Both the position numbers and the translations under genes were made by a program. Source: Flavobacteriales bacterium (GTDB lineage: Bacteria > Bacteroidota > Bacteroidia > Flavobacteriales_F > PHOS-HE28). Taken from it: a DNA stretch of 64,000 nucleotides. The notes beneath the pieces are model-generated. The model saw only the letters and a list, made by a program, of their open reading frames with translations. It had not been told where the DNA came from and did no database searches. The stretch spans positions 37,018 through 101,017 of the forward strand of contig JAEUSU010000004.1 in the NCBI GenBank assembly GCA_016788635.1. The letters are read 5' to 3'. Of this stretch, positions 28,111 to 47,455 are shown one piece after another. Position 1 is the first letter of the stretch. Each line of letters opens with the position of its first letter.

Positions 28111-28166
28111 GCAGGGCCACGGCGTGGAGTGCCTGGTCATCCAATAGGCACGCGGGCAAACATGAA

Positions 28167-28208
28167 GAAGCCCCGTCCCGATGATCCGGGACGGGGCTTC
28201 TTCTTTTG
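28167..28208. terminator. Bidirectional intrinsic terminator between the convergent TPR and universal-stress-protein genes
   Basis: Perfect 14-bp stem GAAGCCCCGTCCCG-atgatc-CGGGACGGGGCTTC followed by TTCTTTTG. Confidence 0.75.
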
Positions 28209-39262: not shown

Positions 39263-39459
39263 GCGTCCGCAAAGGTAGCTGGGGACGTGGGGCCACGCGG
39301 CCGATCAGCCGGTCCACATAGAGGAGGAGGGTCGCCAGGTCCGGTGTATGGTACGGTGGAAGCCGCTTGCTATCTTGCTCCGGTCAGTAATGCCCGTACG
39401 ACGTGCATTTGCGCAAGCCGTACGACCGACAACGAACAACCGACAACTTCCACTCCCGC

Positions 39460-42156
39460 ATGAGGATCCTCGACCTGAAAGCCATGCGCGGCCCGAACCA
39501 CTGGTCCGTGCGCCGCCACAACCTCATCATCATGCGGCTGGACATCGGTGAGTTGGAGGAGCGCCCCACCGACAAGATCCCCGGTTTCCTGGACCGCATG
39601 AAGGCCCTGATGCCCTCCCTGCACAGCCACCGCTGCAGCGAAGGGCACGCCGGCGGTTTTTACGAACGGGTGGAGCGTGGCACCTGGATGGGCCACGTGA
39701 TCGAGCATTTCGCTTTGGAGATCCAGACCCTGGCTGGCATGGAGACCGGTTTCGGGCGCACCCGCAGCACCAGCGAACGCGGTGTGTACAACGTGGTCTT
39801 CAGCTACATCGAGGAGCCCGTGGGCCTCTATGCGGCCAAGGCGGCGGTACGCATAGCCGAATCGCTCATCGAAGGCAGGGAGGTGGATCTGGCAGCGGAC
39901 CTCCAGGCCATGCGCGAACTGCGCGAGGACAGCCGCCTGGGCCCCAGCACCGGCAGCATCGTGCAGGAGGCCGCAGCGCGCGGCATTCCCTACTTGCGCC
40001 TCAACGGCCAGAGCCTCGTGCAACTGGGCCATGGCATACACCAGAAACGCATCCGCGCCACCATCACCAGCCGCACCAGCAACATCGGGGTGGAGATCGC
40101 CTGCGACAAGGAGGAGACCAAGCAGCTGTTGGAGAGTTACGAGATCCCCGTGCCCAAGGGCCGTGTGGTGCGCACCGAGGAAGGGCTCATGGACGCGCTC
40201 AGCGTGGTGGGTTTCCCCTGCGTCATCAAACCCATCGGCGGCAACCATGGGCGCGGCGCCACCATCGGCATCAAAACGAAGGATGAGGCCATTGCGGCCC
40301 TGGCCAAGGCCAAGGAGATCAGCCGCAGCGTGATCGTGGAGCGCTACATCACCGGCCTGGACCACCGCCTGCTCGTCATCGACCACCAGTTCGTGGCCGC
40401 CGCCAAGCGCACCCCCGCCTGCGTGATCGGCGATGGCAAGCGCAGCATCCGCGCGCTCGTGGAGGAGGTGAACACCGACCCCCGCCGTGGTTACGGCCAT
40501 GAAAAGGTCCTCACCCGCATTGACATTGACGACCATACGGAGAAGCTGCTCGCCCGCCGCGACATGACGCCCGACAGCGTGCCGCCGAAGGACGAGGTGG
40601 TGTACCTGAAGGCCACGGCCAACCTCAGCACCGGTGGCACCGCCACCGACGTCACGGAGGTCGTGCACCCCTACAACGTCTTCATGGCCGAGCGCATCTC
40701 GCGCATCATCGACCTGGACATCTGCGGCATCGACATCATGACCGATGACATCACGCAGCCGCTTACCGAGACCGGTGGTGCCGTGCTGGAGGTGAACGCC
40801 GCGCCCGGCTTCCGCATGCACCTGGAGCCCACCGAGGGCATCGGGCGCAACGTGGCCGAACCCGTGGTGGACATGCTCTTCCCGCCCGGCGCGCCCAGCC
40901 GCATCCCCATCATCGCCGTCACCGGCACCAACGGAAAGACGACCACCACGCGCCTCACCGCGCACATCATGCGCAGCGTCAACTTCAAGGTGGGCATGAC
41001 CTGCAGTGATGGTGTGTACATCATGAACCGCATGCTGATGAAGGGCGACTGCACCGGCCCGGCCAGCGCGCAGTTCGTGCTGAAGGACCCGCTTGTGGAC
41101 ATGGCCGTGCTGGAGACCGCACGCGGCGGCATGCTGCGCAGTGGCCTCGGCTTCGAGCATTGCGACGTGGGCATCTGCACCAACGTGGCCGCCGACCACC
41201 TCGGCCTCAAGGACATCAACACCCTGGAGGAACTTGCACATGTGAAGAGCACCGTGCCCCGCAGCGTGCGCAAGGACGGCTACGCCATCCTCAACGCCGA
41301 CGATGACCTGGTTATGGCCATGCGCAAACAGTGCGATTGCAGGATCGCCCTTTTCAGCCTCGACGAGAACAACCGCCTCATCCGCCAGCACTGCAAGCTC
41401 GGCGGCCTCGCGGCCATCTATGAGAATGGCTTCATCACCATCAGCAAGGGCGAGTGGAAGCTGCGCATCGAGAAGGCGGTGAACGTGCCGCTCACTTACG
41501 GAGGCAAAGCGGTTTTCAATATCCAGAACATCCTGCCCGCCGTGCTGGCCGCCTACACCCAGGGTGTGAAGATCGAGGAGCTCCGCCAGGCGCTGATGAC
41601 CTTCGTGCCCTCACCGGCGCAAACGCCCGGCCGCCTCAACCTCTTCCAGTTCCGCAACTTCCAGGTGGTGGTGGACTATGCCCACAACCCGCATGGCTTC
41701 GAGGCCTTGGGCCGTTTCCTCAGCAAGGTTCCCGACACACCCAAGATCGGCGTCATCGCCGGCGTGGGCGACCGCCGCGACGAGGACACCGTGAACCTCG
41801 GCAAGCTCAGTGCCCGCATGTTCGACGAGATCATCATCCGCCAGGATCGCAACCTGCGCGGCAAGACCGACGACGAGATCATCGCGCTGCTGGTGAAGGG
41901 CATCCAGGAGGTGGACCCCAACAAGCCCTTCAAGATCATGAAGAAGGAGGACGAGGCCATCCGCCACGCCATCGGCACCGCGCCGAAAGGTGCCTTTGTG
42001 GTGCTCTGCAGCGATGTGGTGCCCGATGCCTTGGCGCTTGTCCTGAAGTTGAAGGAGGAGGATGAGCAGGTCAGCTTCAACAAGGAGGATATCCCGAATA
42101 GGAATAAGGAGTTGGTGGGAAGGGCAGAAGTGCCGGTGGAAGGGCATGGGCAGTGA
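39460..42156 (+). CDS. cphA: Cyanophycin synthetase
   Basis: N-terminal cyanophycin-synthetase domain (MRILDLKAMRGPNHWS...), central ATP-grasp, C-terminal Mur-ligase-like domain (VTGTNGKTTTT). Start at ATG 39460. Confidence 0.9.
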   Translation: MRILDLKAMRGPNHWSVRRHNLIIMRLDIGELEERPTDKIPGFLDRMKALMPSLHSHRCSEGHAGGFYERVERGTWMGHVIEHFALEIQTLAGMETGFGRTRSTSERGVYNVVFSYIEEPVGLYAAKAAVRIAESLIEGREVDLAADLQAMRELREDSRLGPSTGSIVQEAAARGIPYLRLNGQSLVQLGHGIHQKRIRATITSRTSNIGVEIACDKEETKQLLESYEIPVPKGRVVRTEEGLMDALSVVGFPCVIKPIGGNHGRGATIGIKTKDEAIAALAKAKEISRSVIVERYITGLDHRLLVIDHQFVAAAKRTPACVIGDGKRSIRALVEEVNTDPRRGYGHEKVLTRIDIDDHTEKLLARRDMTPDSVPPKDEVVYLKATANLSTGGTATDVTEVVHPYNVFMAERISRIIDLDICGIDIMTDDITQPLTETGGAVLEVNAAPGFRMHLEPTEGIGRNVAEPVVDMLFPPGAPSRIPIIAVTGTNGKTTTTRLTAHIMRSVNFKVGMTCSDGVYIMNRMLMKGDCTGPASAQFVLKDPLVDMAVLETARGGMLRSGLGFEHCDVGICTNVAADHLGLKDINTLEELAHVKSTVPRSVRKDGYAILNADDDLVMAMRKQCDCRIALFSLDENNRLIRQHCKLGGLAAIYENGFITISKGEWKLRIEKAVNVPLTYGGKAVFNIQNILPAVLAAYTQGVKIEELRQALMTFVPSPAQTPGRLNLFQFRNFQVVVDYAHNPHGFEALGRFLSKVPDTPKIGVIAGVGDRRDEDTVNLGKLSARMFDEIIIRQDRNLRGKTDDEIIALLVKGIQEVDPNKPFKIMKKEDEAIRHAIGTAPKGAFVVLCSDVVPDALALVLKLKEEDEQVSFNKEDIPNRNKELVGRAEVPVEGHGQ

Positions 42157-43092: not shown

Positions 43093-43872
43093 TCACTCCC
43101 CCGTGTACACCGGCTTCCGCTTCTCCAGGAACGCCTGCACCCCCTCGTTGTAATCGTGGCTGCGGCCGGCGAGGGTTTGCAGCTCGTTCTCGTGGTCCAA
43201 CTGGGTATCGAGGCTTGTGTTCTGCGCGCGGTTCAACGCCTCCTTGGTGAGGGCGATCGCCTTGGTGGGCATGGTGGCCAGCTTCTTCGCGAGGGCGGTG
43301 GCCTCGTTCATTAGTTCAGCGTCGGGCACGGCCTTCCAGATCATGCCTTGGGCCTCGGCTTCCTTGGCGCTCACCTTCGGGGCCAGGATCATTTGGCCGA
43401 AGGCGCATTGCATGCCTACCAAGCGCGGCAGGGTGTAGGTGCCGCCACTGTCGGGGATCAGGCCGATGTGGATGAAGCTCTGGATGAAGTTGGCGCTCTC
43501 GGCCGCCAGCGTGAGGTCGCAGGCGTAGGCGATGTTGGCCCCGGCCCCGGCCGCCACGCCGTTCACCGCGCACACCACCGGCTTGGGCAGGTTGCGGATG
43601 CGCCGCACGATGGGGTTGTACTGCTTCGTCAGGATCTCCTCGATCTGGGAGCCCGGCGCGATGGCCTCAGCCAGGTCCTGTCCGGCGCTGAAGGCCCGCC
43701 CTTCGCCGGTGAACAGCAAGGCCCGCACGCTGGTGTCGTTCTTCGCCTTGTCCAGCGCATCGATCACTTCCAATGACATCTCGCGGTCGAAGCTGTTCAG
43801 CTTGTCCGGACGGTTCAGGGAAAGGGTGGCCACGCCATCGACGATGGTGAAGAGGATCTTGGTGTAGGGCAT
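43093..43872 (-). CDS. paaG: Enoyl-CoA hydratase/isomerase (crotonase fold); likely PaaG-type isomerase of the phenylacetate pathway
   Basis: Crotonase motifs (FTGEGRAFSAGQDL, NGVAAGAGANIAYACD) and co-orientation at the distal end of the paaABC(D) cluster. Confidence 0.75.
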   Translation of the reverse strand: MPYTKILFTIVDGVATLSLNRPDKLNSFDREMSLEVIDALDKAKNDTSVRALLFTGEGRAFSAGQDLAEAIAPGSQIEEILTKQYNPIVRRIRNLPKPVVCAVNGVAAGAGANIAYACDLTLAAESANFIQSFIHIGLIPDSGGTYTLPRLVGMQCAFGQMILAPKVSAKEAEAQGMIWKAVPDAELMNEATALAKKLATMPTKAIALTKEALNRAQNTSLDTQLDHENELQTLAGRSHDYNEGVQAFLEKRKPVYTGE

Positions 43873-43876
43873 GGGG

Positions 43877-44092
43877 TCAAAGTTCTGTCTTGTCGATACC
43901 GGCTTGCCGAAGGATGCCTATCAGTGTGCCTTTCGGAAGGTCGCCCCTGTGCATGGGTACTACTGTCATTTTGCCGTTCGAACGGTTCTTGAAGATCCGG
44001 TGGGAGCCCTTGGCGCGGACGTACTCAAAGCCGTGTGCCTCCAAGACACGGATCAACTCGGCGGCTGTCATCGTGGGCGACTTCGCCATCAC
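43877..44092 (-). CDS. hicA: HicA-family mRNA-interferase toxin
   Basis: 71 aa; AAELIRVLEAHGFEYVRAKGSHRIF...TVVPMH..DLPKGTLIGILRQAGI matches the YcfA/HicA consensus. Confidence 0.8.
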   Translation of the reverse strand: MMAKSPTMTAAELIRVLEAHGFEYVRAKGSHRIFKNRSNGKMTVVPMHRGDLPKGTLIGILRQAGIDKTEL

Positions 44093-44316
44093 GAAGCGAG
44101 CACAAGGGAATACTCGAAAGTCTTGCTGTCATCCGGGACCGGATCGCCCTCGGCTTCCAAGGTCTCCACGTACAGTTCGATGGCTTCCTTCGCCATGGCC
44201 AGCGCATGGTCGATGTTCTCGCCGTAGGTGATGCATCCCGGAAGCGCCGGGACCATCACAGTAAATCCGCCTTCAGGTTCCTGAGTGAGCAGGATGCGAT
44301 AGGTGCGTTGGGACAT
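44089..44316 (-). CDS. hicB: HicB-family antitoxin
   Basis: 75 aa; RILLTQEPEGGFTVMVPALPGCITYGENIDHALAMAKEAIELYVE (UPF0150/HicB fold); 4-bp overlap with hicA. Start at ATG 44316. Confidence 0.75.
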   Translation of the reverse strand: MSQRTYRILLTQEPEGGFTVMVPALPGCITYGENIDHALAMAKEAIELYVETLEAEGDPVPDDSKTFEYSLVLAS

Positions 44317-44335
44317 GGTTGCAAGATACTGAGCC

Positions 44336-44827
44336 TCACAAGCACTTGAACTGATCGAATGGCTCCAGGCAATCCTGGCACTTCCATAGCGCCTTGCAGG
44401 CCGTGCTGCCGAAGAGTGATAGCAGCACCGTGTTCGTGGAACCGCACTGCGGACAGGCCACCACCGGTTGCTCGCCTTTGAGCGCACGGATATCAGCGGT
44501 CTTCTCCGGCGGGGCGATGCCGTATTGCTTCAGCTTGCGTTTGCCCTCGTCGGTGATCCAATCGGTGGTCCAGGCAGGGGAGAGGCTCAGCCTCACTTCC
44601 ACCGCGGGCACGCCGGCCTCCAGCAGTTCCTTCTTGATGTCGGCCGCCATCACGTCCATGGCCGGGCAGCCGGTGTAGGTGGGGGTGATGGTGACGATGG
44701 CCTTGCCGCTCTCCTCCACCTCCACGCCGCGCACCACGCCAAGCTCCAGCACGTTGATGGCCGGGATCTCCGGGTCCTTAACGTAGTCGAGGAGCTCGAG
44801 AATGCGGTGTTTGGTGGGGGTGGGCAT
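44336..44827 (-). CDS. paaD: Phenylacetate-CoA oxygenase subunit PaaD
   Basis: DUF59/MIP18-like domain (PEIPAINVLELGVVRGVEV…ITPTYTGCPAMD) plus C-terminal Cys-rich finger (CPQCGS…CQDC). Confidence 0.8.
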   Translation of the reverse strand: MPTPTKHRILELLDYVKDPEIPAINVLELGVVRGVEVEESGKAIVTITPTYTGCPAMDVMAADIKKELLEAGVPAVEVRLSLSPAWTTDWITDEGKRKLKQYGIAPPEKTADIRALKGEQPVVACPQCGSTNTVLLSLFGSTACKALWKCQDCLEPFDQFKCL

Positions 44828-44869: not shown

Positions 44870-45238
44870 TTAGTAGTCCTCCATCGTTGATTGAAATTCT
44901 GTGGAGCTCAACACCTCGGTCACGCGATTTCCACCTTCCACATAGTTCTCGCGTGATCGGATCGTATCCCCGTTCGCGAGTATCGCTGTCAGGCCGTAGG
45001 TATTCTCACCCGGACTGAGAAACGAGGTGGATGCCTGTCCGTTCGCTTCAATAGGGCCGAAGGACTCCTTCCCACGTTCGTGCGATAAGATCAAGGTGGA
45101 GATGATTTGGTCATTCCGATTGACCACTTTGATGCAGACGTGCTCCAGGGATCGTGGGCACTCAGCGTATGGAGACGAACAACCGACGAATACGGTGCAA
45201 AGCGCAATTACCGTTAGGAGTCTTGTCAATCGCTCCAT
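44870..45238 (-). CDS. Small hypothetical lipoprotein (122 aa), low-GC insert within the paa operon
   Basis: Lipobox TVFVGCSS; GC content (~50%) clearly lower than flanking paa genes (~65%). Confidence 0.5.
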   Translation of the reverse strand: MERLTRLLTVIALCTVFVGCSSPYAECPRSLEHVCIKVVNRNDQIISTLILSHERGKESFGPIEANGQASTSFLSPGENTYGLTAILANGDTIRSRENYVEGGNRVTEVLSSTEFQSTMEDY

Positions 45239-45256: not shown

Positions 45257-46039
45257 TTACCATTCCACCCCCGGAAACGCCCGTGTCACATGCTGCATCT
45301 CCGCCAGGATGAAACCCATGTGCTCGCTGTGCAGGCCCTTGCGGCCGCCTGTCATCATGAAGGCATCAGCGGGGCGCTTCAACGTGGCTTCGGAAAGCAC
45401 CTGGTCCATGGTCTTGCTCCAGGCTTCCCTGATGGCGGCGATGTCCGGTGCGATGCCCGCCTTGGTCATCTCCTCCAGAACAGCATCGCTCTCGAAGAGC
45501 TCGCCAGTGTATGTCCACAGGTTGTCGAGGGCGGCTTGGGCACGTTGGTGGCTCTCCTCGGTGCCATCGCCGAAGCGGATCAGCCATTCGCTGCTGTGGC
45601 GCAAGTGGTAGGTGGCCTCCTTCACGCTCTTGCCCGCGATGGCGGCCAGTTGTGCATCGCTGCTCTTGGTCAGGGCCTGCATCAGCGGCAGGTGGTAGGC
45701 ATCGAAGAGGAAGCTGCGCACGATGGTGTGGGCGTAGTCGCCGTTGGGCTGCTCCACTAGTTTCACGTTGGTGAACTGCCGCTCCAAGCGCAGGTAGGCC
45801 AGGTCGTCCTCGGAACGCGGGCCCGCCGTAGCCTTGGCGGAGGCGGGGCCTTTCCCTTCCACCTGCCCGGCATAGGTGAGCAGGTTGCGGGCCTCGCCAA
45901 GGTGGTCCAGCGCGCGGTTGGTGAGGGCGATGTCCTCCTCCAGCACGGGGCCGTGGCCGCACCATTCACCCAGGCGTTGGCTCAGGATGAGGAGGTCGTC
46001 CGCCAACCGCAGTGTGTATGTAAAAAGTGCGTTGCTCAT
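45257..46039 (-). CDS. paaC: Phenylacetate-CoA oxygenase subunit PaaC
   Basis: PaaC/PaaI collinearity (MSNALFTYTLRLADDLLILSQRLGEWCGHGP…). Start at ATG 46039. Confidence 0.85.
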   Translation of the reverse strand: MSNALFTYTLRLADDLLILSQRLGEWCGHGPVLEEDIALTNRALDHLGEARNLLTYAGQVEGKGPASAKATAGPRSEDDLAYLRLERQFTNVKLVEQPNGDYAHTIVRSFLFDAYHLPLMQALTKSSDAQLAAIAGKSVKEATYHLRHSSEWLIRFGDGTEESHQRAQAALDNLWTYTGELFESDAVLEEMTKAGIAPDIAAIREAWSKTMDQVLSEATLKRPADAFMMTGGRKGLHSEHMGFILAEMQHVTRAFPGVEW

Positions 46040-46049
46040 TTCAAGCGCA

Positions 46050-46122
46050 GGTTGGGGGTTGGAGGTTGGTGGGTTGGGGGTTGAGGGCCAACCCTCAACC
46101 ATCGTCAACCTTCAACCATCAA
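46050..46122. repeat. Intergenic heptamer tandem repeat (GGTTGGR x5) immediately followed by its inverted copy (CCAACCY x~4), forming a ~73-bp imperfect palindrome between paaB and paaC
   Basis: Read directly: GTTGGGGGTTGGAGGTTGGTGGGTTGGGGGTTGAGGG-CCAA-CCCTCAACCATCGTCAACCTTCAACCATCAA; central perfect 8-bp stem GTTGAGGG/CCCTCAAC. Confidence 0.7.
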
Positions 46123-46125
46123 TGA

Positions 46126-46419
46126 TCAGATGTATTTCGCCCCCTCAGGCATGGTGTAGAACGTTGGGTGCCTGTAGACCTTGTCATCCGCTGGGTCGTA
46201 GAAGCTCTCCGCGTCCTCGGGGCGGCTGGCGTGGATATGCTCGGCCTTTACCACCCAGATGCTGTTGCCTTCCTGGCGGCGGGTGTACACATCACGGGCG
46301 TTCTCGATGGCCATCTCGGCATCGGCGGCGTGCAGGCTGCCCACGTGCTTGTGGTCGAGCCCGCGCTTGCTCTGGATGAACACTTCCCAGAGGGGCCAGT
46401 TGTTGGGGTTGTCGCTCAT
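46126..46419 (-). CDS. paaB: Phenylacetate-CoA oxygenase subunit PaaB
   Basis: 97 aa; conserved PaaB sequence (WPLWEVFIQSKRGL…HVGSLHAAD…). Confidence 0.9.
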   Translation of the reverse strand: MSDNPNNWPLWEVFIQSKRGLDHKHVGSLHAADAEMAIENARDVYTRRQEGNSIWVVKAEHIHASRPEDAESFYDPADDKVYRHPTFYTMPEGAKYI

Positions 46420-46427
46420 TTTCTATT

Positions 46428-46500
46428 GAGTAACGAGTGGCGAGTGTTGAATGTCGAGTGGTGCTGCCGGGGCAGCTCCGCCACTCGTTACTCGCCACTC
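46428..46500. repeat. Intergenic overlapping inverted repeats (15-bp and 12-bp perfect arms plus an inner GCTGCC..GGCAGC hairpin) between paaA and paaB
   Basis: GAGTAACGAGTGGCG (46428-46442) pairs with CGCCACTCGTTACTC (46480-46494); GAGTGGCGAGTG (46435-46446) pairs with CACTCGCCACTC (46489-46500). The two pairings are mutually exclusive. Confidence 0.7.
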
Positions 46501-46504
46501 CGTA

Positions 46505-47455
46505 TCATGCTGCTTGCTTGCGTTTCGCCTTCTTGGCGGCGTAGGCCACGGCTGCTTCGCGCACCCAGGCGCCATTGTTATGCGCCTTGTTGCGTGCTGC
46601 GAGCCGTTCCTTGTTGCAGGGGCCATTGCCGGCCACCACATTGTTGAACTCGGTCCAGTCGATGGTGCCCCAGTCGTAGTGCTTGGTCTCCGCGTTCCAC
46701 TTCAGGTCGGGATCGGGGATCGTGAGGCCGATCACTTCGGCCTGCTGCACGGTGCGGTCGATGAAGGTCTGGCGCAGTTCATCATTGCTCTGGCGCTTGA
46801 TCTTCCACTTCATGCTCTGTGCGCTGTGCGGGCTGTTGGCGTCTGTGGGGCCGAACATCATCAAGCTGGGCCACCACCAGCGGTTCAGGGCGTCCTGCGC
46901 CATTTCCTTCTGCGCGGGACTTCCCTTTGCCAGCACGGCCATGATCTCGTAACCCTGTCGCTGGTGGAAGCTCTCCTCCTTGCAGATGCGCACCATGGCG
47001 CGGGCGTAAGGGCCATAGCTGGTGCGGCACAGCATCACCTGGTTCATGATGGCGGCACCGTCCACCAACCATCCGATGGCACCGATATCCGCCCAGGTGA
47101 GGGTGGGGTAGTTGAAGATGCTGCTGTACTTGGCCTTGCCGCTCAACAGGTCGTCGATGGTCTGTTCCCGGCTGGTGCCCATGGTCTCCACTGCGCTGTA
47201 GAGGTAGAGTCCGTGCCCGGCCTCATCCTGCACTTTGGCCAGCAGGATGGCCTTTCGTTTCAAGCTGGGCGCACGGGTGATCCAGTTGCCCTCGGGCAGC
47301 ATGCCCACCACTTCGCTGTGCGCGTGCTGGCTGATCTGGCGCACCAAGGTCCTGCGGTAGGCGTCCGGCATCCAGTCCTTCGGCTCGATCTTTAGTTCGG
47401 CGTCGATCTTGGCTTGGAAGAGCTCCTCCAGGTTCTTCACGTCGGTCATGGACAT
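46505..47455 (-). CDS. paaA: Phenylacetate-CoA oxygenase catalytic subunit PaaA
   Basis: Di-iron ferritin-like motifs ([10 protein letters not shown]…, EESFHQRQG) and PaaA length. Confidence 0.92.

Follow-up and report, generated by a model that had tools for sequence, protein, structure and literature searches.

A fold-back heptamer array in the paaB-paaC spacer of an uncultured Flavobacteriales bacterium

The spacer between the phenylacetate-degradation genes paaB and paaC in the DNA analysed here, a 64-kb stretch (hereafter the window) of the metagenome-assembled genome (MAG) of an uncultured Flavobacteriales bacterium, consists largely of 7-nt tandem repeats followed by inverted copies of themselves, and is very probably an inverted heptamer repeat that has evolved in place. 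It occupies positions 46040-46125 of the window (86 nt) and is bounded by the TGA stop codon of paaB and the ATG start codon of paaC. We assign a probability of roughly one half to the combined explanation that inverted heptamer arrays arise and evolve in place, are transcribed and exert a structural effect, and we regard a structural role in the mRNA, within the operon, as the most reasonable reading of this element. The paaB-paaC element is a further example of a kind of bacterial repeat that is widespread, already noticed and poorly understood.

Results

A repeat-built hairpin between paaB and paaC

The genes around the spacer were assigned with NCBIfam models and are all encoded on the minus strand: paaA (46505-47455), paaB (46126-46419, 97 residues; TIGR02157, 1.6e-42), with its TGA stop codon at 46128-46126, and paaC (45257-46039, 260 residues; TIGR02158, 4.4e-88), with its ATG at 46039-46037. 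On the plus strand, the paaC-proximal part of the spacer (46050-46087) is a G-rich array of GGTTGGN units, for which Tandem Repeats Finder (TRF) reports a period of 7, 5.3 copies, 84% matches and the consensus GGTTGGG, and which is also picked up by a lag-7 scan. In minus-strand mRNA the same segment is a G-free, C/A-rich run of CCAACCN heptamers and forms the 3' arm of a hairpin. The 5' arm (46088-46122), delineated by inverted repeats I3-I10 and by the predicted fold, is G/U-rich in the mRNA and made of GGUUGAN-type heptamers. Its plus strand reads CAACCCT CAACCAT cgt CAACCTT CAACCAT CAA, corresponding to four to five inverted CAACCNT units with a 3-nt insertion among them, and lag-7 periodicity on this side extends over 46089-46130. 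A preliminary description of the spacer had recognised this arrangement of direct GGTTGGR-type heptamers and inverted copies, and had taken the repeats to fill the spacer completely; they do cover most of it, but their units account for 73 of the 86 nt.

At the apex (46079-46100), an inverted-repeat search (I13) identifies a perfect stem of 9 bp, not 8 bp as first described, closed by a 4-nt loop, with the RNA sequences GGUUGAGGG/CCCUCAACC and the DNA sequences GGTTGAGGG/CCCTCAACC at 46079-46087 and 46092-46100. In the minimum free energy (MFE) structure, RNAfold favours an adjacent register (GGGUUG/CAACCC with a 5-nt loop), which is expected because repeats can slip. The complete stem extends over 46052-46122 and comprises approximately 26 bp, with imperfections. 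Its base lies 3 nt past the paaB stop codon and approximately 12 nt ahead of the paaC start codon, so the long imperfect hairpin sits between the two codons as initially proposed. The unpaired leader that separates the stem from the paaC AUG, CUGCGCUUGAA (46040-46051), lacks anything resembling a Shine-Dalgarno sequence, which is the expectation for Bacteroidota.

The predicted folding energy of the spacer in the sense of the mRNA is -35.3 kcal/mol, compared with -22.4 +/- 2.9 kcal/mol for shuffled sequences (z = -4.52), and none of 200 shuffles was equally stable; the hairpin is therefore not a product of chance, and the spacer is highly non-random and not a simple one. In a 291-nt context the same stem is retained in both the MFE and the centroid structures. 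RNA of the plus strand, which is antisense to paa, folds even more stably (-47.3 kcal/mol, z = -4.43), because A.C mismatches in the mRNA turn into G.U pairs in the antisense molecule.

A scan of 45800-46700 for promoters and terminators returned no such site within or beside the spacer, which makes read-through transcription plausible. Accordingly, an intrinsic terminator or attenuator was discarded as an interpretation: the stem is followed by CUGCGCUUGAAAUG instead of a run of U residues, and canonical terminators elsewhere in the window, for example at 28164-28205, look different. Scanning the entire window against Rfam gave no covariance-model match at the gathering score.

The spacer turns over in place among relatives

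We extracted the paaB-paaC spacers of 80 related paa loci from metagenomes. The coding flanks are readily alignable, but the spacer is not, and its length runs from 9 to 105 nt in relatives whose PaaC proteins are 65-89% identical. Even relatives with flanking proteins that are 84-96% identical have AGTTGTC or GTGAATG heptamers, a short plain hairpin, or a spacer of 9-33 nt at this site. Fold-backs with other units were found in L004 (AGTTGTC.../...GACAACC), in L009 and L010 (GTGAATG/CATTCGC), in L006 (GTGAACG-like) and in L061 (ATTGAAA/TTTCAAT). In L005, L008 and L014 the spacer holds only a plain hairpin of 8-9 bp (the L005 version measures 33 nt), and in further relatives it is reduced to a few nucleotides. 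Taken together, the lack of alignability and the presence of other units, a plain hairpin or almost nothing in relatives indicate that the element evolves in place and is dispensable.

In a distant relative (L033, PaaC 57% identical), positions 1-200 contain GGTTGAA units followed by approximately 15 TTCAACN units that reach the paaC start; the unit is of the CAAC type, the same as in the window. Three Logan contigs carry a spacer identical to that of the window, and four independent assemblies of the organism are identical, from which it follows that the element is not a hypermutable contingency locus.

Fold-back heptamer arrays in many phyla

To place the element, we searched 185,579 species genomes for the fold-back pattern GGTTGNNGGTTG-N(1-31)-CAACCNNCAACC. 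The search returned at least 120 matches, compared with approximately 20-30 expected by chance in a hand estimate that assumes uniform base composition; among the matches listed, none comes from the genome of the window and none overlaps the window. GGTTGNN/NNCAACC fold-backs thus occur in at least 120 places in genomes of many phyla, and the repeat-family census proposed in the preliminary description had an outcome other than anticipated: they do not constitute one element family. Nearly all matches listed lengthen into arrays on both arms, with units that are specific to the genome (GGTTGCA, GGTTGTC, GGTTGAA, GGTTGGT, GGTTGAT), and they form a diverse class of heptameric simple-sequence repeats. 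Among 80 listed titles (L084-L163), fold-backs are seen in Bacteroidota (27), Acidobacteriota (15), Chloroflexota (11), Planctomycetota (8), Cyanobacteria (6) and Gemmatimonadota (4), with 2 in Proteobacteria, 1 in Firmicutes and 0 in Actinobacteria; this tally is a hand count of a sample in an unspecified order and is indicative only. The skew, with few Proteobacteria and Firmicutes among the matches listed, is only suggestive.

Loci amounting to 1.2 Mb from many phyla were fetched for comparison, of which 352 kb were paa loci and 854 kb surrounded GGTTGNN matches. Throughout this set, 7 is the leading period that is not a triplet. The paa loci contain 43 segments with a lag of 7, compared with 18, 24, 21 and 25 for lags of 6, 8, 9 and 12, respectively, and many of the lag-7 segments form inverted pairs. 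In the other loci, with the sites through which they had been ascertained masked, 167 segments have a lag of 7, compared with 36, 12 and 16 for lags of 8, 5 and 10. Adjacent inverted pairs in the masked set number 32 at period 7 and 0-4 at other periods, the lag-14 echo aside.

The arms of these pairs are arranged asymmetrically. The G-rich arm comes first in 53 of the 57 fold-back pairs in which the order was not forced by the search pattern, and in all 13 pairs from the paa loci and the window. This polarity is a genuine asymmetry, and it entails that in RNA from either strand the 5' arm is G/U-rich and the 3' arm C/A-rich. Since an inverted repeat shows one and the same polarity on either strand, this polarity is silent on which strand is read, and we dropped the position of the G-rich arm at the 5' side of the mRNA as proof of strand-specific selection. 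Avoidance of Rho was rejected as a general cause of the polarity as well: cyanobacteria are not known to possess Rho, and the polarity holds in cyanobacterial loci too, so that avoiding this factor cannot be the general reason.

Two further regularities concern the surrounding genes. Start codons are present in 1 of the 41 distinct heptamers of 3' arms, compared with 29 of the 45 of 5' arms. Among 105 evaluable arrays, 35 cleanly show the order stop codon, array, start codon between co-directional open reading frames (ORFs), five are in convergent and four in divergent contexts, and the rest are ambiguous. The distance from the stop codon to the array is approximately 0 nt, and that from the array to the start codon has a median of approximately 5 nt. 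The element in the window conforms to the regularities of polarity, start codons and context. Its 7-nt units run head to tail in at least three copies, with a lag-7 signal in both arms; the two arrays converge, G-rich arm first, and are able to form a stem-loop; the element is intergenic, with its G-rich side by a stop codon and its C-rich side by a start codon; and unit number and sequence vary among close relatives at this one locus.

Two further features of the fetched loci were noted. Some 8-kb stretches hold four to six fold-back arrays with differing units (L189, with six arrays in 8 kb, and L158, L107, L114, L098 and L187); they come from Chloroflexota, Planctomycetota, Acidobacteriota and Cyanobacteria, and the G-rich arm is first in all of them. 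In addition, long arrays of a single unit with 9-20 copies, namely (TTAGTTA)n, (CTTCTGT)n, (CCACTGA)n, (AACTCCR)n and (CAACCTT)n, are situated in or beside paa clusters and other loci (L056, 2801-2887; L058, 382-465 and 2031-2098; L064, 2406-2488; L147, 927-1090).

Comparison with known heptamer repeats

Heptamer repeats have been described in several bacterial groups. Among the long simple-sequence repeats of prokaryotes, heptanucleotides are the most frequent according to Mrazek et al. (2007), a study quoted by two later papers (PMC4679880, PMC4692102), and slippage of the polymerase was proposed to account for them. Among the closest counterparts of the element in the window are the GGGAATC arrays of Xanthomonas campestris and X. 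citri, which form 70-75 convergent plus/minus pairs per genome with the potential to fold into stem-loops (Rehm et al., 2015; PMC4692102). Their G-rich strand is found 0-50 bp from stop codons and their C-rich strand near start codons, array length differs between X. campestris (Xcc) and X. citri (Xac) at conserved loci, and both GGGAATC arrays and the GGGGAYT heptamer arrays of Nostoc form G-quadruplexes in vitro (PMC4692102). The window element resembles these Xanthomonas and Nostoc arrays in having a G-rich 7-nt unit in few copies, mostly in intergenic positions between co-oriented genes (PMC4692102). It further shares with Xanthomonas the G-first inverted pairs, the G-rich arm by the stop codon and the C-rich arm by the start codon, and the variability of the locus among relatives; the Xanthomonas work also weighs stem-loops and G-quadruplexes as competing structures. 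In contrast to the window, however, a Xanthomonas genome is ruled by one heptamer (approximately 180 sites) with true GGG/GGGG runs, whereas the GGTTGGN unit in the window mostly has runs of two G residues, a different heptamer is found in the neighbouring spacer, and the host belongs to the Flavobacteriales.

A second group is formed by TAACTGA and other heptamers of Beggiatoaceae, Cyanobacteria and Bacteroidetes (Flavobacteriia among them), which stop a few nucleotides short of a start codon (MacGregor, 2015; PMC4679880). These arrays are missing from close relatives that have shorter spacers, and S1, cold-shock proteins (Csp) and CsrA were proposed to bind them (PMC4679880). As in the window, G-poor arrays in the forward orientation lie near a start codon, and the reverse orientation occurs right after a stop codon (PMC4679880). 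The TAACTGA-type repeats were described chiefly as single direct arrays, with one inverted case among 170 in a Beggiatoaceae genome, whereas the array in the window is paired with an inverted copy and forms a hairpin.

Some sister elements among the fetched loci have units of known types: AGTTGTC in L004 matches the Nostoc heptamer ttgtcagttgtcag, and L056 and L080 have TAACTAA-like units. Short tandemly repeated repetitive (STRR) heptamers of cyanobacteria were reportedly described by Mazel and co-workers in 1990. Heptamers of the ttgtcagttgtcag type occupy 44 sites in Nostoc (PMC2408588), and deletion of a heptamer affects the expression of recF and recO according to a Nostoc preprint (bioRxiv 10.1101/2022.06.06.494920).

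The only experimentally dissected case that we found is the hairpin in the 5' untranslated region (5'-UTR) of hmw1 in Haemophilus influenzae, in which the transcribed (ATCTTTC)n array constitutes one arm; RNase III cuts this hairpin, which is needed for expression and for changes in repeat number, so that expression depends on the hairpin and not on the repeat alone (PMC12721329). As predicted for the paaB-paaC element, it is a long mRNA hairpin with a heptamer array just upstream of a coding sequence. Unlike the element in the window, it is located in a 5'-UTR, its repeat makes up a single arm and pairs with a G-rich region as the other, and the pyrimidine-rich arm comes first. Moreover, the hmw1 array is hypervariable and causes phase variation, whereas the window element is identical in four assemblies. 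In a limited literature search we found no paper that describes the cross-phylum fold-back form or its general polarity.

Other arrays and genes in the window

Lag-7 periodicity in the whole window is confined to three places, of which the paaB-paaC spacer is the only one with a GGTTGGN array; the other two use other units. The first of these is a second fold-back heptamer hairpin on the minus strand, in the paaA-paaB spacer (46420-46504), revealed by the lag scan and by folding (-37.0 kcal/mol). Its stem (46434-46500) consists of GAGUGGC/GAGUAAC units followed by CCACUCG/UUACUC. The GAGTGGC fold-back is homologous in L008, L010 and L011, with unit numbers that differ on both arms, and elsewhere the paaA-paaB spacer contains AGTTGTC (L004 and L013) or TAGTCGY (L005).

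The other is a single-arm, C/A-rich array on the plus strand (39418-39453; CGACCGA CAACGAA CAACCGA CAAC), detected by TRF and a lag-14 scan. It finishes 6 nt ahead of an ATG at 39460, within an ORF called at 39403-42156, and its unit type is that of the 3' arm of the L004 paaB-paaC spacer.

Downstream of paaC, the minus strand encodes paaD (44336-44827) and a PaaG-like isomerase (43093-43872), both assigned by NCBIfam model matches. A HicA toxin/HicB-like antitoxin pair (43877-44319, minus strand; Pfam PF07927, 3e-20, and PF15919, 3e-12) lies between paaD and the paaG-like gene and is also present on L001. Between paaC and paaD, an ORF of 122 codons (44870-45238, minus strand), likewise called on L001, has no Pfam or NCBIfam match, and its G+C content at third codon positions (0.62) is below that of its neighbours. 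PaaC itself contains a low-complexity insertion of approximately 10 residues, GKGPASAKATAGPRSEDD, around residues 62-79 (window positions approximately 45800-45860), where most relatives have GKGR(T/A)EDD and the relatives P0002 and P0013 have another insertion, HKDRPSTPLRTEDD.

Discussion

We propose that units of the paaB-paaC element are gained and lost through slippage by 7 nt, and that the complementarity of the two arms may be maintained by copying from arm to arm (template switching) or by selection. The element would be transcribed within a paaABC mRNA, where its imperfect hairpin of approximately 26 bp would form. Folding of the 86-nt spacer would bring the stop codon of paaB and the start codon of paaC physically together, and would leave next to the paaC AUG only a G-free arm that carries neither start codons nor Shine-Dalgarno-like sequences. 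This 3' arm may be masked until a ribosome that terminates on paaB, or a double-strand-specific RNase, opens the base of the stem. Synthesis of PaaC could thereby be coupled to that of PaaB, as it would be in relatives with spacers of 0-20 nt. Coupling of PaaB and PaaC is plausible because the two proteins are subunits of one complex and the phylum does not rely on Shine-Dalgarno pairing. We put this coupling or masking role in paaC expression forward tentatively, with the odds somewhat against it.

Several observations weigh against a role of the hairpin in the mRNA. All six wobble positions of the paaB-paaC element are A.C mismatches in the mRNA, and the antisense fold is the more stable one in 10 of 14 paa fold-backs, with 32 G.U pairs in sense and 44 in antisense RNA; we therefore rejected the idea that the hairpin is tuned for the sense strand. 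Nor are stop codons enriched in the 5' arms (21 of the 45 distinct heptamers contain one, compared with 20.6 +/- 2.6 expected from composition), for which reason a function of the 5' arm as a supplier of stop codons in three frames, suggested by the TGA that recurs every 7 nt here, was also rejected. In the paaA-paaB hairpin, compensatory double changes were seen in only 4 of 32 pairs, but covariation in this spacer is not decisive because the repeats make the alignment ambiguous. Finally, close relatives live with a paaB-paaC spacer of 9-33 nt, and the complementarity of the arms could be purely mutational in origin. The lack of stop codon enrichment, the lack of a bias towards the sense strand and the scarcity of compensatory changes mean that there is no positive evidence of selection on the structure of the mRNA.

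The main rival to coupling is that the element is a neutral by-product, an array generated by slippage together with a template-switch copy that is tolerated in the spacer and has no effect on paa expression. We consider this unlikely, but it is the best of the alternatives. It is in line with the wholesale replacement of the spacer among close relatives, some of which have almost none, with wobble pairs and stability that do not favour the sense strand, with the few compensatory changes, and with slippage of heptamers as the general mutational bias that has been attributed to Mrazek et al. (2007) in PMC4679880 and PMC4692102. However, neutrality leaves unexplained why the G-rich arm is first in 53 of 57 pairs, what binds inverted pairing to a period of 7, and why, where neighbouring genes are co-directional, the arrays fill the space from the stop codon to the start codon. 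At the least, some filter on the spacers that are tolerated, favouring a G-poor leader and self-folding, would be needed.

Less probable is a specific regulatory RNA, in which the hairpin would be a site for RNase III, or the array a platform phased at 7 nt for a protein with an oligonucleotide/oligosaccharide-binding (OB) fold such as a cold-shock protein or S1, and which would set the ratio of PaaA and PaaB to PaaC. A stem of approximately 26 bp is in principle long enough for RNase III, and cold-shock domains contact approximately 7 nucleotides. The (ATCTTTC)n hairpin of hmw1 (PMC12721329) and the proposed binding of S1, Csp and CsrA to heptamer arrays upstream of start codons (PMC4679880) offer precedents. 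On the other hand, relatives share no conserved sequence or cleavage motif, and the adjacent paaA-paaB and paaB-paaC spacers differ in their heptamers, which makes a sequence-specific binder unlikely.

Insertion between paaB and paaC of a mobile or dispersed element that resembles a repetitive extragenic palindromic (REP) sequence or a miniature inverted-repeat transposable element (MITE), was one of the readings offered in the preliminary description but is very improbable. REP sequences and bacterial interspersed mosaic elements (BIMEs) do occur within operons, for example between malE and malF in Escherichia coli, as transcribed imperfect palindromes that are thought to protect the upstream mRNA and tune the ratios of subunits. 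Similarly, the element in the window is an intercistronic imperfect palindrome within an operon, and GGTTGNN fold-backs recur within some genomes (in Acidobacteria Bin_42R and Saprospiraceae CTOTU46442, for instance, on three contigs each). However, REP sequences, the families of which are reviewed in PMC3733652, are unique palindromes of 20-40 bp with a GTAG/CGTC head that are present in hundreds of near-identical copies and linked to REP-associated tyrosine transposases (RAYTs), none of which is seen in the window. The element is a 73-nt structure with a tandem array inside, neither end has a GTAG/CGTC head, there is one GGTTGGN copy in 64 kb, and the copies in other genomes vary in unit and copy number. 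No terminal inverted repeat was found, nor a target duplication flanking 46050-46122, as a MITE would have. Orthologous sites in relatives are occupied by other, unrelated heptamer repeats, and not by an empty site that would contrast with an insertion, which argues for evolution in place and against insertion of a conserved mobile sequence.

The plus-strand repeat had also been called a strong G-quadruplex candidate. Its GGTTGG modules do resemble the thrombin-binding aptamer, and the plus strand contains one motif with runs of three G residues (G3), although this motif requires a 12-nt loop. The GGGAATC and GGGGAYT arrays that form G-quadruplexes in vitro (PMC4692102) provide a further parallel. 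Nevertheless, the claim was overstated and the candidacy of the spacer is poor: motifs of the canonical form (G3+, loops of 1-7 nt) are absent from both strands of the spacer, the mRNA strand has no G3 motif of any kind, and the G-rich array is on the template strand. Two-tetrad motifs are frequent across the window (345 on the plus strand). A G-quadruplex would also compete with a very stable hairpin (-22 kcal/mol as DNA, -35 to -47 kcal/mol as RNA), and most sister elements use heptamers without G runs, such as AGTTGTC, GAATTAT and AGTACAA. We regard a G-quadruplex as hardly credible here.

Least likely of all, the spacer might code for an N-terminal extension of PaaC from an in-frame ATG inside the repeat (46102, minus strand), from which an open frame passes through the repeat and with which gene calls on Logan contigs (L001, 1206-2051; L002, 1245-2090) arrive at a PaaC of 281 residues extended by MVEGWPSTPNPPTSNPQPALE; we rejected this because the NCBI model gives a start at MSNALF (260 residues), as in P0001, a 100% identical protein from a MAG at NCBI, the PaaC family profile match begins at residue 12 of the 260-residue form, and the PaaC proteins of relatives have 250-252 residues, with occasional N-terminal extensions (P0012, P0013, P0044 and P0099) that are unrelated to one another. 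The extensions called in those relatives are, judging from their sequences, spurious. Spacers that are filled with repeats and contain no stop codons invite such mis-annotation of gene starts.

For the paa locus itself, the meaning of these results is modest: an odd spacer is explained, over-extension of PaaC is warned of, and a mobile element is in effect ruled out. The broader yield is that, of all short tandem repeats, only those of period 7 regularly occur as inverted pairs. Their G-first polarity, the restriction of pairing to period 7 and the filling of the space from stop to start in many phyla are not explained by slippage alone, and these regularities of the class give testable handles on the long-open role of bacterial heptamer repeats. 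We speculate, as a long shot, that fold-back heptamers are a general intercistronic device shared across phyla and more than debris of slippage, with a self-folding spacer of fixed polarity (a G/U-rich arm behind the stop codon, a G-free arm ahead of the start codon) and a register of 7 nt corresponding to the footprint of OB-fold chaperones (Csp/S1). If this is true, then in lineages that seldom rely on Shine-Dalgarno pairing, downstream translation would be coupled to the upstream cistron, or tuned by the level of chaperone or by temperature.

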